Shown piece after piece: positions 1,233 to 35,747 of a DNA stretch of 35,747 bases. Location: the IMG/VR virus record IMGVR_UViG_3300013883_000001; one strand, written 5' to 3'. This DNA comes from a virus. Each line of letters opens with the position of its first letter. Positions within the stretch are counted from its first letter, which is position 1. The notes under the pieces were generated by a model. It was not told the DNA's origin. It saw only the letters and a list, made by a program, of their open reading frames with translations, and searched no databases. Position numbers and translations under genes: made by a program.

Positions 1233-1589
1233 ATGGAAGATCTGGTTTTGCGGCTGGCCTATGACATCTTAGCCATCCTGATTACTGTGGCGGTGGCCCT
1301 GCTGATCGGTTGGCTAAAAAAGAAGCTGGGTATTGAAGGAATCAAGAAGGTGCAGGAGGAACTGACCGCCAAGCAGGAACTGGCACTCCTGGCGGTCAAG
1401 GCCGTGGAGCAACTCTGGGGTGGAGTGCTTCATGGGGAGGAAAAGGTCGAGAAGGCCGCCGAGTTTATATCCACACAGGCAGCCAAGGCTGGATTGACCA
1501 TTTCCCCGGAAGAGATTCGCACATTGATTGAATGGGCGGTACGTACCATGAAGGATGAATTTGGCGAGGAATGGGCCAAGCAGGCGTAA
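1233..1589 (+). CDS. LL-H-family holin-like protein (N-terminal TM, helical C-terminus)
   Basis: ATG abuts the endolysin stop. TM span ILAILITVAVALLIGWL, then GEEKVEKAAEFISTQAAKAGLTISPEEIRTLIEWAV, which matches my memory of the Holin_LLH family pattern. Confidence 0.65.
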   Translation: MEDLVLRLAYDILAILITVAVALLIGWLKKKLGIEGIKKVQEELTAKQELALLAVKAVEQLWGGVLHGEEKVEKAAEFISTQAAKAGLTISPEEIRTLIEWAVRTMKDEFGEEWAKQA

Positions 1590-1595
1590 TATGGC

Positions 1596-1636
1596 AGGAG
1601 GGGCACGGGCAGACCGGCCCCTCCTTTTGTTGTTTT
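1596..1636 (+). terminator. Rho-independent terminator ending the lysis operon
   Basis: AGGAGGGGC (1596..1604) pairs with GCCCCTCCT (1617..1625), followed by TTTTGTTGTTTT. Confidence 0.8.
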
Positions 1637-1662
1637 GGGGAGGTTGGTCATTTCGCCCGAAA

Positions 1663-1684
1663 TGAGAAAACCGCCCATCGGACG
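1663..1684 (-). terminator. probable terminator for the leftward HTH gene
   Basis: Minus strand reads CCGTCC-GAT-GGGCGG (6-bp stem with one G.U) followed by TTTTCTCATTT, about 25 nt after the stop at 1710. It converges on the + strand terminator. Confidence 0.45.
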
Positions 1685-1709
1685 GGTCATCCCGTTTCCG
1701 ATAGCCGGC

Positions 1710-1889
1710 TTACGATACGTCCAGTACCTCGGCGAGTTTACGGAGCATCTCGGGGTCTGGTTTTCTTTGCTCGCGTTCGTATCTATTAATTGTAGCATCG
1801 GAGACATTTAATAGCTTGCCTAATTGAGCCTGTGTAAGCCCCTTCCTTTGGCGGGCCTTTTTTAGTCTTTCTCCAAAACCCATACTCAT
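1710..1889 (-). CDS. XRE-family HTH regulator, 59 aa (leftward gene of the switch)
   Basis: Below the ORF-track cutoff; hand-translated as MSMGFGERLKKARQRKGLTQAQLGKLLNVSDATINRYEREQRKPDPEMLRKLAEVLDVS. AAGGTGG SD at 1891..1897. Classic HTH_3 pattern (LTQ.qLa..l.vs...i.r.E.g...P). Confidence 0.8.
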   Translation of the reverse strand: MSMGFGERLKKARQRKGLTQAQLGKLLNVSDATINRYEREQRKPDPEMLRKLAEVLDVS

Positions 1890-1914
1890 ACCACCTTACC
1901 AACTTGGTAATTTT

Positions 1915-1942
1915 ATTCTACCACAAGAGCAAGGGGAAACAA
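1915..1942 (-). promoter_or_regulatory. candidate leftward promoter (extended -10)
   Basis: Minus strand reads TGG-TAGAAT (-10 = 1915..1920, TG at 1922..1923) with a weak -35 TTGTTT (1937..1942, 16-nt spacer). O1 lies over the expected 5' UTR. Confidence 0.4.
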
Positions 1943-1972
1943 AATATTTCTACCAACATGGTAATTTCCCTC

Positions 1973-2001
1973 TTGACACTACCATATCGGTAGTTTATAA
2001 T
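1973..2001 (+). promoter_or_regulatory. rightward early promoter, perfect sigma-A consensus
   Basis: TTGACA (1973..1978), a 17-nt spacer, then TATAAT (1996..2001). The spacer is occupied by operator O3. Confidence 0.8.
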
Positions 2002-2045
2002 CAGAAGTGAAAGCTACCAGATTGGTAGGAAGGAGGTCGATAAGC

Positions 2046-2435
2046 ATGAAGCGGTATATAGACCTTGCTAAAATCAGAGCACTTCGCAAGCAGAAAGGTC
2101 TTACCCAAGAGGACATGGCGCAAGCCTTAGGATATGAAACTGCCATCGGTTATCACTATTTAGAAACCGGTAAGCGCCGTATTACTGCTGAAAGGCTTGC
2201 AGACATAGCAACCATTTTAGGCGTAAACGTCGATGATTTGTATACCGAAGAACCTACCAATATGGTAGCTAATCCCGCCATCAAAGAACAGGAGGTGATT
2301 CCCCATGTTAGCCCAAGACGCAATGGCTGCCGCCCGCGCAGAAGCCCTTGCTCACATCCAAAAGGCTTCCCTGGTAAGGGAACTGGCCACCATCACGGCA
2401 GGGTCGAAGCGGGACAACTGGCCGGTCAAGATTAA
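2046..2435 (+). CDS. XRE-family HTH regulator (Cro/antirepressor-position gene)
   Basis: ATG 2046 lies 9 nt after GAAGGAGG; the ORF-track GTG 2007 lies inside O4 and the UTR. HTH: LRKQKGLTQEDMAQALGYETAIGYHYLETGKRRITAERLADIATILGV. The last ~40 codons overlap the next gene and look non-protein-like. Confidence 0.75.
   Translation: MKRYIDLAKIRALRKQKGLTQEDMAQALGYETAIGYHYLETGKRRITAERLADIATILGVNVDDLYTEEPTNMVANPAIKEQEVIPHVSPRRNGCRPRRSPCSHPKGFPGKGTGHHHGRVEAGQLAGQD
2254..2268. promoter_or_regulatory. distal fifth operator O5 inside the rightward HTH gene
   Basis: CTACCAATATGGTAG, with both arms matching the consensus exactly, 240 bp downstream of O4. Confidence 0.6.
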
Positions 2436-2718
2436 GGTTCGCGCTGGCGAGTATTTCGAAGTTACCGGCCGGGCCACGAGGTTGGACCTCTACCTGACCG
2501 AGACCAATGCCGGTTATCTGGTGGCGGTACCCAATCATAACAGGTGCGGTCACGTGCCTGCAGACTGCAGCGCCTACGACGTCATGGACTATGTCGGGAT
2601 TGAAAACCAGGTCGATGCCACTACTTTGGCGGCGGCTATTCGATATCTGGTGTCCGCAGGATTAGCGTGCAGTCACCCTTCACCATCAATGCTACCAGAG
2701 AAAGGTGGTGATAAATAG
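2305..2718 (+). CDS. hypothetical early protein
   Basis: ATG 7 nt after GGAGGTG. 137 aa with protein-like composition; no motif recognised. Confidence 0.65.
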   Translation: MLAQDAMAAARAEALAHIQKASLVRELATITAGSKRDNWPVKIKVRAGEYFEVTGRATRLDLYLTETNAGYLVAVPNHNRCGHVPADCSAYDVMDYVGIENQVDATTLAAAIRYLVSAGLACSHPSPSMLPEKGGDK

Positions 2719-2782
2719 CCGGATGGCTCTACAGATGGGACAGCTCGACATGCCTTAACTCTACTGGAAGGAGGTGATAGGG

Positions 2783-3325
2783 ATGTCAATCGGGCAGGCT
2801 CTACGGGAAGCCAGAGAGCGGCGGGGCATGACGCAGGAAACGGCTGGCCAGATCGGCTACGTAAGCAACAAGATGGTATCGGCCATCGAGTGTGGCCGGC
2901 GGGCAGCCGGCCCGGATGTCCTGGAGCGGTTGGCGACCACCCTGGATTATCCCAGGCTCTATATGGAAGCGGCAGCCGAGGTTACAGGCGGAGTTTACGC
3001 CTCACCCTGGTTGGATGGCGACGGCGTGGATCTGCATCGGACAAGTGTCTGGGCCAAAACCTGCGAGGAACTGCAGGAGGCCATCAAGGTTGTGTCGGCG
3101 GCCGACGTGGTGAACGCCCCGAGCCGGGCCGACGAGGCTCACCGCCAGGCTGTTCACGACAGCATGATCCAGATCCTCGACGCCAGGGTAGCCATCGACC
3201 ACTACCTGGCGGTTATGTGCGAGGAATATGGCTTCAGCATCCTGGCGGTTTATCAGGAACATCGCCGGAAATTAGAAAGCCGAGGCTATATATCGCCCCG
3301 GCCAAAAAGAAAGAGCGCTTCGTAA
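2783..3325 (+). CDS. HTH (XRE) domain protein with ~110-aa C-terminal domain
   Basis: ATG 2783 follows GGAGGTG at 2770..2776. N-terminal IGQALREARERRGMTQETAGQIGYVSNKMVSAIECGRR is an HTH_3 pattern. Confidence 0.75.
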   Translation: MSIGQALREARERRGMTQETAGQIGYVSNKMVSAIECGRRAAGPDVLERLATTLDYPRLYMEAAAEVTGGVYASPWLDGDGVDLHRTSVWAKTCEELQEAIKVVSAADVVNAPSRADEAHRQAVHDSMIQILDARVAIDHYLAVMCEEYGFSILAVYQEHRRKLESRGYISPRPKRKSAS

Positions 3326-3409
3326 GCGCCCCATCCGAAATTACCCTACCCCTATTGTATCACGCCTAACAGGCTGGCACAAGAGGGGAAATGAAAGGAG
3401 GCCCGCAGA

Positions 3410-3622
3410 GTGGCCAGACAACCGAAAGACCTTGAATATCGAGCTGAATATGAGCCTGACATGGTCAGGATGGTCAGGGCCCTGCGGGTCCTCCTGAACT
3501 ACGATCCAGGAAAGGAGAATGACCATGGAACAGGCTCAAAAATCAGACCGGTGCATGAGGTGCAACCGGGCCCTGAGCAATCCCCACTCCATTGCCCGGT
3601 GCCTTGGACCAAAATGTTATAA
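3410..3622 (+). CDS. small hypothetical protein (3' third overlaps next gene)
   Basis: GTG 8 nt after AAAGGAGG. MARQPKDLEYRAEYEPDMVRMVRALRVLLNYDPGKE looks coding; the rest runs 104 nt into the next gene. Confidence 0.4.
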   Translation: MARQPKDLEYRAEYEPDMVRMVRALRVLLNYDPGKENDHGTGSKIRPVHEVQPGPEQSPLHCPVPWTKML

Positions 3623-3995
3623 GAAGGCCGGCGGCGGGGTGTTCGACGCCGATTTGCAGGCGGATGACAAAGAGTGGGCCCGCCGGGAGGAGTTGCTAAA
3701 GGCCGGCGGAGAGATTGACCTGGGGGTGAACTGGGATTACCCGGACCCTGGGAACATGATCAGGAGCTACCACATGCGCGTCAGCGTGAGATATAAGGAC
3801 GGGGCCTTTGAGGCCTACGGATGTTTAATGAAGCCCGGCAAGGACCAGGAAGAAGTGGTTTTCGCCAGGGGGCAGGACCTGAAGGTTATCTACCGAGAGG
3901 CCATCGCTGCGGGGCCGACCGCAACGGCACAGGCCTACCAGGCCAGGAAACCGGCCTTTAGAGCTGCTAAACGAGCCGCCCGACGGGCGAGTTAG
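3519..3995 (+). CDS. DUF6011-like zinc-binding protein
   Basis: N-terminal CMRCNRALSNPHSIARCLGPKC matches the C..C.r.L..p.S...G.G..C pattern I associate with DUF6011. The start may be ATG 3525. Confidence 0.6.
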   Translation: MTMEQAQKSDRCMRCNRALSNPHSIARCLGPKCYKKAGGGVFDADLQADDKEWARREELLKAGGEIDLGVNWDYPDPGNMIRSYHMRVSVRYKDGAFEAYGCLMKPGKDQEEVVFARGQDLKVIYREAIAAGPTATAQAYQARKPAFRAAKRAARRAS

Positions 3996-4006
3996 GAGGA
4001 TGATGC

Positions 4007-10463: not shown

Positions 10464-10542
10464 CGGACTGGGCTGGCTAACTGCTTTGTTAGCTGTTGCT
10501 ATAGGAGTAGCAGTACTGATTGCCCAGCTGGGTAAATGGTAA
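10336..10542 (+). CDS. tail-anchored membrane protein with CPEC motif
   Basis: KIKVQCPECGLMVAG, then a C-terminal TM span LGWLTALLAVAIGVAVLIAQLG. Start uncertain (GTG 10336, TTG 10345 or ATG 10357). Confidence 0.5.
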   Translation: MIWLIKWMPAEKGYLKIKVQCPECGLMVAGKIDIREAQPVWFDGLGWLTALLAVAIGVAVLIAQLGKW

Positions 10543-11345
10543 GGGTGGTAGGATTGAAACCAATACTCAAATATCCTGGTGCGAAATGGAATTTAGCAAA
10601 ATGGATAATACAACATATGCCTCCACATAAGGTCTACTTAGAACCATTCTTTGGTAGCGGGGCGGTGTTTTTTAATAAGCCTCCTGTTGGGATTGAGACT
10701 ATTAATGATCTCGATGGGAACGTAGTTAATTTATTTAAAGTTATTCGTGACTATCCGGAACAGCTGTCTAATATGATTGAAATGACTCCCTGGGCAAGAG
10801 AAGAATACTATTCCAGTTACAAACCAGCCGACAATGGAATAGAAAAAGCACGAAGATTTTTAGTAAGGTGCTGGCAGGCATACGCAACCAGAACAGGTTG
10901 CAGAACTGGGTGGAGGCATAGTGCTACTGGCTTAGCCCCGAATATGCCCGAGCAATGGAATAAACTTCCGGCTAGAGTATTTAAAGTGGCTGATAGGTTA
11001 AAACATGCACAAATAGAATGCATGGAAGCCCTGAGTTTGATAAAGAAGTATAACTACGACAATGTTTTGATTTATGCTGATCCTCCCTACCTGCTAAATA
11101 CACGCAATCGTGGGATATATGAACACGAAATGACGGATGAACAACACTTGCAATTACTTGAGACATTAAAGAAACATAAAGGGCCAGCGATTGTATCCGG
11201 TTATGAATCGGAGTTATACAACGATGCCTTAAAAGGCTGGCAGGTAATGCGCAAAACAGCGACTACCGAGAAAGGACAGTCAAAAACTGAGGTTATATGG
11301 ATTAACCAAATCGTGTCAAATAATACTGGTTTATGGATGTTATGA
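10536..11345 (+). CDS. dam: DNA N6-adenine methyltransferase, D12/Dam class
   Basis: KYPGAKWNLAKWI, EPFFGSGAVFFNK (AdoMet motif), IYADPPY (catalytic DPPY). Start is ATG 10536 or TTG 10554. Confidence 0.85.
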   Translation: MVRVVGLKPILKYPGAKWNLAKWIIQHMPPHKVYLEPFFGSGAVFFNKPPVGIETINDLDGNVVNLFKVIRDYPEQLSNMIEMTPWAREEYYSSYKPADNGIEKARRFLVRCWQAYATRTGCRTGWRHSATGLAPNMPEQWNKLPARVFKVADRLKHAQIECMEALSLIKKYNYDNVLIYADPPYLLNTRNRGIYEHEMTDEQHLQLLETLKKHKGPAIVSGYESELYNDALKGWQVMRKTATTEKGQSKTEVIWINQIVSNNTGLWML

Positions 11346-14105: not shown

Positions 14106-14834
14106 ATGAAACACATTGTTTCCTATTCAGGCGGAAAAGATAGCACTTATATGCTGATTAAAATGCTAGAAAAGAACATGCCTGTAGACGAAATCATTTT
14201 TATAGATACAGGAATGGAGTTTCAGCAATTGTATGATTATATAGATCGTATTGAAAATTACATAGGACGCAGAATTACACGCCTGAAGCCTAAGAAAACC
14301 TGGGACGACCTGTTCTTTCATAAAAAGACCAGGGGAAAACACGTAGGGCAGATAAACGCTTTCCCTATGGTTAGAACTTGTGATATGTCAAGACAACTGA
14401 AAATTGAAACTGCCAAACGCTATTATCGTTCCATAGCAGACAAGTTTATCGTTTATCTCGGCATAGCGTATAACGAACCTAAGCGGTTCGCAAGGCTTAA
14501 AGACAATGAAAGAGCACCTCTGTACGAATGGAAAATAACAGAGGATTTTGTACTTAAAGAACTCAAGCGTATGGGGTTGCATAATCCCCTCTACGATACT
14601 TTTGACCGCTTGGGTTGTTACACCTACCCCAATATGACTTTAAAGGAACTAAGGCTTATGCGAAAACGATACCCTAAAGAATATTCTAAGTTGTTGTGGT
14701 ATGGCAAGCAGGCGGAAAAGCACGCAATCGAACGTAGGTTTGCAGAGTTCAAACCTGATTGGACGCTATCGGAATTGGAAAAACGCTTCCAGTTGGAAGA
14801 ACAACAGGGAACTTTATTTAGCGAGGTGATATAA
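14106..14834 (+). CDS. PAPS-reductase / PP-loop ATPase family protein
   Basis: N-terminal VSYSGGKDSTYML is the SGGKDS PP-loop. The ~240-aa size is typical of phage PAPS-reductase-like proteins. Confidence 0.75.
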   Translation: MKHIVSYSGGKDSTYMLIKMLEKNMPVDEIIFIDTGMEFQQLYDYIDRIENYIGRRITRLKPKKTWDDLFFHKKTRGKHVGQINAFPMVRTCDMSRQLKIETAKRYYRSIADKFIVYLGIAYNEPKRFARLKDNERAPLYEWKITEDFVLKELKRMGLHNPLYDTFDRLGCYTYPNMTLKELRLMRKRYPKEYSKLLWYGKQAEKHAIERRFAEFKPDWTLSELEKRFQLEEQQGTLFSEVI

Positions 14835-35473: not shown

Positions 35474-35713
35474 GTGGTTTTATTGCCGGGAACTGAATTA
35501 GCACAATACGGAATAGCGACCTTCGCGCTTGCGGGGGTCTTTTATTTTGCATCGCAAATTCTGAAACAGAAAAACGATTCGGGAATTGCAGAAGTAATCA
35601 AAAACAACACAAAGGCAATGGAACAGGTGACGGAGGTGGTACAGGCTATCCAGCTTAGCCTTGCTAAGCAAGAAGCTAAAATTGACGAGCTACTTGAACG
35701 GGCCAGGCGGTGA
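35474..35713 (+). CDS. membrane-anchored coiled-coil protein of the lysis cassette
   Basis: One TM span (YGIATFALAGVFYFASQIL), then a helical tail. Start is GTG 35474 or TTG 35483 after GGGAGGAG. Its last 45 nt are the duplicated window start. Confidence 0.55.
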   Translation: MVLLPGTELAQYGIATFALAGVFYFASQILKQKNDSGIAEVIKNNTKAMEQVTEVVQAIQLSLAKQEAKIDELLERARR

Positions 35714-35747
35714 TGGTCATGCGGGGATTTTGGAATGATCCTGATGG
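35669..35747. repeat. second copy of the 79-bp terminal overlap
   Basis: Identical to 1..79. Confidence 0.95.

Follow-up and report, generated by a model that had tools for sequence, protein, structure and literature searches.

COG2856/XRE pairs, in which an XRE-type repressor is encoded with an ImmA/IrrE-type peptidase, include IrrE/DdrO, Rir/Crh of the S. thermophilus phage TP-J34 and ImmR/ImmA of ICEBs1. For DdrO, the C-terminal domain is required for dimerisation and DNA binding (PMC6868357). In the CI/MOR switches of TP901-1 and phi13, a DNA loop around an oligomeric repressor has been proposed (PMC4941734, PMC7250872, PMC8516035), and TP901-1 CI reduced to its N-terminal domain has a much lower affinity than the dimer (PMC4941734). 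Virulent phages carrying remnants of a lysogeny module are also known (PMC6213268), as are clear-plaque mutants that map to cI (PMC4892519). Here we analysed a viral DNA of 35,747 nucleotides, IMG/VR record IMGVR_UViG_3300013883_000001 (the window, i.e. this whole stretch), in which five palindromes, O1 to O5, lie at two divergent helix-turn-helix (HTH) genes: a leftward repressor gene and a rightward gene for a Cro-like protein. We think it probable that these sites form the operators of an ImmR/ImmA-type (COG2856/XRE) switch between lysis and lysogeny that is conserved in prophages, in this genome with a truncated repressor and most likely in an ex-temperate phage.

The palindromes follow the pattern CTACCANNNTGGTAG (CTACCA-N3-TGGTAG). 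Searched over all 35,747 bases with up to two mismatches, it matched five times, at 1896-2268, with 0.85 matches expected in the genome; no further site was found elsewhere in the window at this threshold. Five or more matches arose in 1 of 100 shuffled sequences, and with three mismatches allowed the additional matches were at chance level. This bears out the five palindromic operators reported at the divergent HTH genes in a preliminary description of the DNA, which had also called O5 the best-matching copy (O4 is equally perfect) and had proposed a genome scan with TACCA-N5-TGGTA. That motif has the wrong spacing and returns chance matches only; the correct operator core is TACC-N5-GGTA.

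For comparison, related loci (L numbers) were drawn from IMG/VR and GTDB, among them prophages of Pelotomaculum and other Bacillota; L014 is a Pelotomaculum metagenome-assembled genome (MAG), and L002 is the heteroimmune phage G004 (IMGVR_UViG_3300033986_000111). INPHARED contained no DNA relative of the switch region. In the window, the leftward 59-codon open reading frame (ORF) and the rightward HTH ORF are separated by 156 bp. The rightward promoter, PR, is the only one called by a promoter scan of 1500-3500, and both its hexamers are invariant in an alignment of four relatives. Inspection of the sequence places its transcription start at ~2008 and the rightward Shine-Dalgarno (SD) sequence, AAGGAGG, at 2030-2036. 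The leftward promoter, PL, was not called by the scan and was read by inspection; eight of the nine columns of its extended -10 are invariant in the four relatives, and TGGTAGAAT also occurs in L020, L026 and L027. An additional CTACCA at 1918-1923 is part of this extended -10 (TGGTAGAAT, minus strand, 1923-1915). O1 shares 2 nt with the leftward SD (AAGGTGG, 1891-1897, minus strand), and O2 ends 8 bp before the PR -35. What was previously stated about where O1, O2 and O4 lie with respect to PR and the SD sequences is therefore correct, as is the claim that O3 fills the 17-nt spacer of a perfect TTGACA/TATAAT promoter (12 of 12 positions matched); the same operator-in-spacer design of PR is found in L019, L020 and L021. 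The operators and both promoters are intact in the phage genome.

Ten loci keep the operator layout. All five sites are present in L007/L008, L009, L014 and L021, the last having a repressor only 36% identical, yet five sites at no more than one mismatch and the distal site 251 bp off. L020, L026 and L027 have the four intergenic sites but lack the distal one, and their Cro-like protein is shorter; three sites are kept in L019 and two in L018. The position of O1 and its weaker TTACC...GGTAA form recur in L007, L009, L014, L020, L026, L027 and L019. When four intergenic regions were aligned, 44 of 48 half-site columns were invariant as opposed to 23 of 56 other columns (Fisher p = 4e-8), with 7 of 12 invariant in the central N3 of the operators. 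Run on the relatives' host genomes, the check for confinement of the motif showed clustering only at the switch in two MAGs: all three perfect sites of a 2.0-Mb Pelotomaculum MAG lie within 290 bp at the switch, as do, within 360 bp, 5 of the 11 sites (at most one mismatch) of a 6.6-Mb Bacillota MAG, where a reversed control pattern occurs 29 times.

These several independent lines (enrichment, conserved layout, footprinting and host-wide distribution) identify the five palindromes as predicted functional operators of a divergent-promoter phage switch, in support of the role first suggested for them. Alternatively, the palindromes might work at the RNA level, as hairpins in both leaders and in the cro mRNA: O1, O4 and O5 are transcribed, each can form a 6-bp stem, and one palindrome was flagged as terminator-like. 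However, the leader stems are weak (-4.2 to -6.5 kcal/mol; z-scores -0.4 to -1.6), O2 and O3 lie in untranscribed promoter DNA, the half-site sequence is itself conserved beyond pairing, with no compensatory changes seen, and Rfam gave no match. On these grounds we reject an RNA role as extremely unlikely. The elements of the switch and of its flanks are collected in Table 1.

Table 1. Switch region and flanking features, with positions in the window
Feature	Position	Strand	Description
Junction segment	1590-1712		123 bp, holin stop to truncated-repressor stop; no counterpart in any relative
Terminator-like hairpin and T-run	1671-1685	-	6-bp stem, 5 GC pairs, tail TTTTCTCATT; just downstream of the truncated repressor ORF
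Truncated ImmR-like repressor gene	1710-1889	-	59 codons, HTH helices 1-4 only
O1	1896-1910		TTACCAACTTGGTAA, 2 mismatches; between leftward -10 and SD; T/A outermost
PL	1915-1923	-	extended -10 TGGTAGAAT; weak -35 TTGTTT at 1942-1937, 16-nt spacer
O2	1950-1964		CTACCAACATGGTAA, 1 mismatch; between two back-to-back -35 regions
PR	1973-2001	+	TTGACA (1973-1978), 17-nt spacer, TATAAT (1996-2001), 12/12
O3	1979-1993		CTACCATATCGGTAG, 1 mismatch; fills PR spacer
O4	2014-2028		CTACCAGATTGGTAG, 0 mismatches; ~+6 to +20 of PR, upstream of SD
Cro-like HTH gene	2046-2435	+	HTH_3 at residues 10-65; ancestral 81 codons end near 2288, now 129
O5	2254-2268		CTACCAATATGGTAG, 0 mismatches; codons 70-74 (PTNMV) of the Cro-like gene
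Right-hand mosaic junction	2285-2300		in shared SD AAGGAGGTGAT; L007-type immunity cassette left, G004-type early genes right

The distal fifth site appears to be a conserved, selected part of the switch. Across L007, L009, L014 and L021 its half-sites do not change, in contrast to the central N3 and to the encoded peptide (variants PTNMV, PTSVV, TTNVV and PTNLV), and both four-fold degenerate sites within the O5 half-sites are invariant, compared with 10 of 29 gene-wide, although these numbers are small. In the window, O4 and O5 are separated by 240 bp from centre to centre. The corresponding leader-to-distal distance is 240 bp in L007 and L014, 241 bp in L009, 251 bp in L021 and 221 bp in G004, i.e., at 10.5 bp per turn, 22.9 helical turns in the window, L007 and L014, 23.0 in L009, 23.9 in L021 and 21.0 in G004. 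The conserved half-sites thus uphold the assignment of the distal site to the switch, with a placement like that of the TP901-1 distal operator. G004, whose repressor and Cro-like protein differ from those of the five-site cassette, has four copies of another palindrome, the 18-bp ACTTTGC-N5-GCNAAG (0.63 expected; L002 2891-3231). One copy is beside the repressor SD, another covers the -35 and spacer of PR, a third is in the cro leader, and the last follows 221 bp later, within the 3' end of cro. With a different palindrome in a similar layout, the switch design, including its distal site, thus recurs with a new specificity, and the recurrence of a distal operator in the cro 3' end of a heteroimmune relative supports a general role in looping or as a roadblock.

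As to which protein would bind, the repressor of all ten site-bearing loci carries the recognition helix NVSDATINRYE in its N-terminal HTH, whereas TACC-N5-GGTA is absent from all 32 of the listed metagenome loci whose recognition helix differs (~3 kb each); L026 and L027 have four each. A tandem-HTH repressor in L021 (2749-3375) has NVSDATINRYE in its first domain, and TACC-N5-GGTA sites are present there. The array could alternatively be an early-gene autoregulatory device recognised by the Cro-like HTH protein and not by the leftward repressor. This protein is the only intact HTH protein encoded beside the sites in this genome, O5 lies inside its own coding tail, and in a more distant pair, L110 of Desulfovirgula, both proteins and the outer operator bases change together. 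Its family, recognisable by the conserved LGY-x-T/S-x-I/A-GY-H/S-YLE, is present in eight of the ten site-bearing loci, and homologues also occur in Thermanaeromonas and Moorella. Nevertheless, L018 and L019 keep the sites (two and three, respectively), the repressor and the promoter design with no Cro-like HTH ORF downstream of PR, which favours the repressor as the primary binder, and no locus pairing the Cro-like protein with an unrelated repressor was found among those examined. In lambda and 434, moreover, both proteins share operators, so that binding by the Cro-like protein is a likelier addition than alternative. We therefore regard exclusive recognition by the Cro-like protein as unlikely, and use of the operators by both proteins, as in lambdoid switches, as likely. 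The most economical reading would have both promoters under one kind of HTH dimer, and the earlier view that one protein controls both is retained as such. A 181-aa HTH protein had also been listed among the candidate binders. Its distribution does not follow the motif: G004 has a ~90% homologue and lacks the motif, while L009 has the motif and another protein in that place.

The leftward gene encodes the DNA-binding part of a larger repressor. Its likelier start is the ATG at 1883, which has the better SD spacing, and the product matches Pfam HTH_3 over positions 1-51 of 55. All residues of the 59-aa protein are shared with the N-terminus (1-59) of the 113-aa L007 repressor (L007:3506-3844, minus strand; 100% identity); at the DNA level, identity with L007 runs rightwards from 1713 and breaks exactly at codon 59/60, the stop codon of the window gene falling in unrelated sequence left of the junction. 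An AlphaFold2 model of the full-length repressor (mean predicted local distance difference test score 76, above 90 over the HTH domain) has five helices (5-16, 20-27, 31-38, 46-56 and 60-65) followed by a disordered linker and, at 91-108, by a C-terminal helix, so a product truncated at residue 59 would lack helix 5 and the C-terminal part. The best PDB match of the repressor is 7t8i, the Xre-family regulator of ICEBs1 (ImmR N-terminal domain; E = 8.1e-13), and the N-terminal domains of P22 C2 and 434 are also sequence relatives. The L007 repressor scores 74.9 bits against the RstR family (NCBIfam NF041951; profile 1-107 of 108), just under the 80-bit cut-off. Pfam found no Peptidase_S24 domain in the window protein or in its full-length L007 relative.

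The 59-aa protein had been put forward as a candidate binder and must now be read as a truncation. As DdrO needs its C-terminal domain and TP901-1 CI binds much less well when reduced to the N-terminal domain, this stub is, by analogy, probably inactive. One could take it for a working minimal repressor in a fully functional switch, perhaps with a non-integrative carrier state. The gene retains promoter, SD, start, recognition helix and a terminator-like hairpin of its own; short HTH-only regulators exist, and Cro proteins have ~60-70 aa. However, the end of the ORF coincides with the homology break relative to its relatives, the protein lacks both the conserved C-terminal helix and the last of the five helices of the fold (helix 5), the nine other aligned family members all have at least 111 aa, and neither integrase nor ImmA was found in the window. 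A functional minimal repressor is thus very unlikely. More speculative is a two-part idea: that heteroimmune phages with ImmR/ImmA-type switches follow a common rule of design, with a distal operator in the last Cro-like codons, some 21-24 full helical turns away from the leader site, dictating the Cro tail peptide, and that the truncated HTH-only repressor, retained with a promoter and terminator of its own, is no debris but an expressed monomeric decoy competing for half-sites, which would aid lytic growth of this integrase-less phage or overcome homoimmune repression. This combination we consider a long shot.

The relatives indicate what the locus would have contained. L007, a provirus locus carrying the window's cassette at near identity, encodes leftwards, in order, the 113-aa repressor, a 147-aa HEXXH Peptidase_M78 protein, two cargo genes and a 542-aa serine recombinase, an order common to L009, L014 and G004. 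Peptidase_M78 (PF06114) adjoins the repressor in L007 and L002, and L009 also has a peptidase gene. In the window, three ImmA queries gave nothing better than E = 0.02 (tblastn), tblastn detected no serine-recombinase homologue anywhere, and a Pfam scan of 30 ORFs revealed no integrase or ImmA. The genome thus lacks ImmA and the serine integrase, and its repressor gene is cut at codon 59 by a recombination junction. Most likely, then, this is a deletion derivative of a temperate phage, unable to maintain lysogeny. Its sites probably now serve mainly the Cro-like protein or the repressor of a resident homoimmune prophage. Several side observations concern the repressor module of the relatives. 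The C-terminal 35 residues of the repressor, AAHRTDDPLKELPEEARRSLEEFQEYILRKYGKKKD, are near-identical in L015, L016, L017 and L002 despite differing HTHs and operators, and look like a portable module, perhaps the part for ImmA recognition or dimerisation. A second tandem-HTH repressor is encoded in L028 (1150-1870), and in L009 immA is separated from the repressor gene by genes for a HicA toxin and a UPF0150 (HicB-like) protein (2436-3119).

The Cro-like gene has changed as well. The TAA that follows codon 81 (tail AINE/AINQ) in L007, L009 and L014 reads CAG in the window, and because of this replacement the ORF runs to 129 codons. The 48 additional codons overlap a 137-aa gene (start 2305) in another frame, with a GC content at third codon positions of 0.51 in the extension and 0.68 in the overlapping frame. 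What had been presented as a '130-aa' HTH protein is therefore the product of an 81-codon gene that has lost its stop.

By local BLAST, the region is a three-part mosaic: G004-type over 1-1264 (83%), L007-type over 1713-2290 and again G004-type over 2290-4000 (88-90%). The junction segment has no match in the related loci, a search of 162 genomes from the order of G005 with 1585-1715 gave nothing convincing, and the junction 31-mer is absent from IMG/VR. The segment 1590-1712 has terminator-like hairpins on both strands, including, by eye, a plus-strand hairpin and T-run at ~1596-1636 after the holin gene; aberrant excision may have carried it along from the host flank. The two ends of the contig overlap exactly over 79 bp (1-79 versus 35669-35747), which closes it into a circle of 35,668 bp. 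An Amidase_3-SLH endolysin and the holin are encoded just left of the switch; further genes encode TerS, TerL, portal, prohead protease, an HK97-type capsid and a tape-measure protein. The genome also encodes an SbcCD-like pair, a DnaC/IstB-like loader and, in the early/replication region, a D12-class N6-adenine methyltransferase (10536-11345) and a PAPS-reductase-domain protein (14106-14834).

The arrangement suggests the following scheme. In intact relatives, a dimer of the 111-131 aa XRE repressor would sit with its NVSDATINRYE helix on each TACC-N5-GGTA core. Occupation of O3, in the PR spacer, and of O4, in the early leader, would shut the lytic promoter PR; O1, the weaker variant over the PL start and SD, would confer negative autoregulation at high repressor levels, and O2 would be bound between the two -35 regions. 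Lying some 23 helical turns farther downstream, close to where the Cro-like coding sequence originally ended, O5 might provide cooperativity via a DNA loop or act as a roadblock. The neighbouring M78 peptidase (ImmA) would relieve repression, and the Cro-like protein may use the same sites in lytic growth.

Several points weigh against this interpretation. Since the Cro-like family co-occurs with the sites in most loci, the sequence alone cannot assign binding to the repressor only. L028 has NVSDATINRYE in the second of its two HTHs together with GTTGC-type palindromes and no TACC-N5-GGTA. Only the distances between sites, which are conserved and close to integral numbers of helical turns, speak for looping and cooperativity. 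By themselves, the N-terminal domains of the lambda and 434 repressors still bind operators to some extent, and the stub might likewise keep residual activity. Finally, the truncation, the lost stop or the mosaic join could be assembly artefacts. If so, the contig would be a metagenomic chimera, which would also account for the missing lysogeny module, and the real switch would be intact. The mosaic itself, alternating between two types, fits such a chimera, as does the origin of the relatives in sister metagenomes. However, the 123 bp of unique sequence at the left junction fit neither parent type, the right-hand crossover falls within a shared SD, where real homologous exchange would be expected, and the contig closes on itself exactly. 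Chimeric assembly is thus quite unlikely, and it would leave the operator finding unchanged.

A deleted lysogeny module and a truncated repressor explain how a temperate-style switch comes to lie in a closed genome with no integrase. The comparison also yields an operator consensus (TACC-N5-GGTA), a promoter map and a recognition helix for unstudied prophages of syntrophic and thermophilic Bacillota, whose hosts include Pelotomaculum, Desulfovirgula and Desulfosporosinus. To our knowledge, no phage genetics exists for these hosts, and the PR, operators and repressor of an intact relative could become a regulated expression cassette for such anaerobes.

Among described switches, the locus is of the ImmR/ImmA type and not of the TP901-1 CI/MOR type, because the 111-131 aa repressor of its relatives adjoins an ImmA/IrrE-type peptidase and a serine integrase. 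Like these relatives, ICEBs1 has an XRE repressor with a short C-terminal helical region, an HEXXH M78 neighbour and divergent transcription of the repressor from the genes it represses (mechanism in PMC6868357); in the relatives, the peptidase may likewise cleave or inhibit the repressor. In contrast to ICEBs1, this genome has no peptidase gene and its repressor is cut at residue 59. The ImmR-like N-terminal domain is present in the window, whereas the C-terminal dimerisation/cleavage region (present in L007, L009, L014 and L002) and the M78 neighbour are absent; owing to the deletion, two defining features of COG2856/XRE systems, an intact repressor and an adjacent peptidase, are thus missing. 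A further difference from other COG2856/XRE pairs is that the operator sequence and the 4+1 layout belong to this lineage specifically.

The likeness to TP901-1 asserted in the preliminary description holds for the layout with a distal operator and fails for the proteins, as the relatives carry a COG2856/XRE module with Peptidase_M78. TP901-1 and phi13 share with this locus divergent promoters, palindromic operators for a CI dimer and one distant operator (OR, OL and OD). Promoter operators and one distal site are indeed present in the window; a hexamerising CI of ~180 aa is not, and the relatives have a single C-terminal helix. TP901-1 CI has 180 aa, a hexamerisation domain and three operators, compared with a 111-131 aa family, an ImmA partner and five sites here, and MOR, an antirepressor, has no DNA binding by itself, whereas the rightward protein is, by Pfam, an ordinary HTH_3 protein. 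Lambda, 434 and P22 are alike in having several operators of graded match, a weaker site over the repressor's own promoter and a divergent repressor/Cro pair. They differ in the S24 autocleavage domain of their repressors, and in lambda the partner is a second operator cluster 2.3 kb away, not a site 240 bp off inside cro. Virulent dairy phages with remnants of a lysogeny module, and clear-plaque cI mutants, likewise retain a switch region but are missing the integrase or an intact repressor (PMC6213268, PMC4892519); here, by contrast, unrelated DNA begins precisely where the repressor gene is cut off, and the phage, one of anaerobic Bacillota, is uncultured and known from its sequence. The type of switch is thus already known, and what is new here is the cut-down repressor, the loss of the lysogeny genes and the lost stop of the Cro-like gene.

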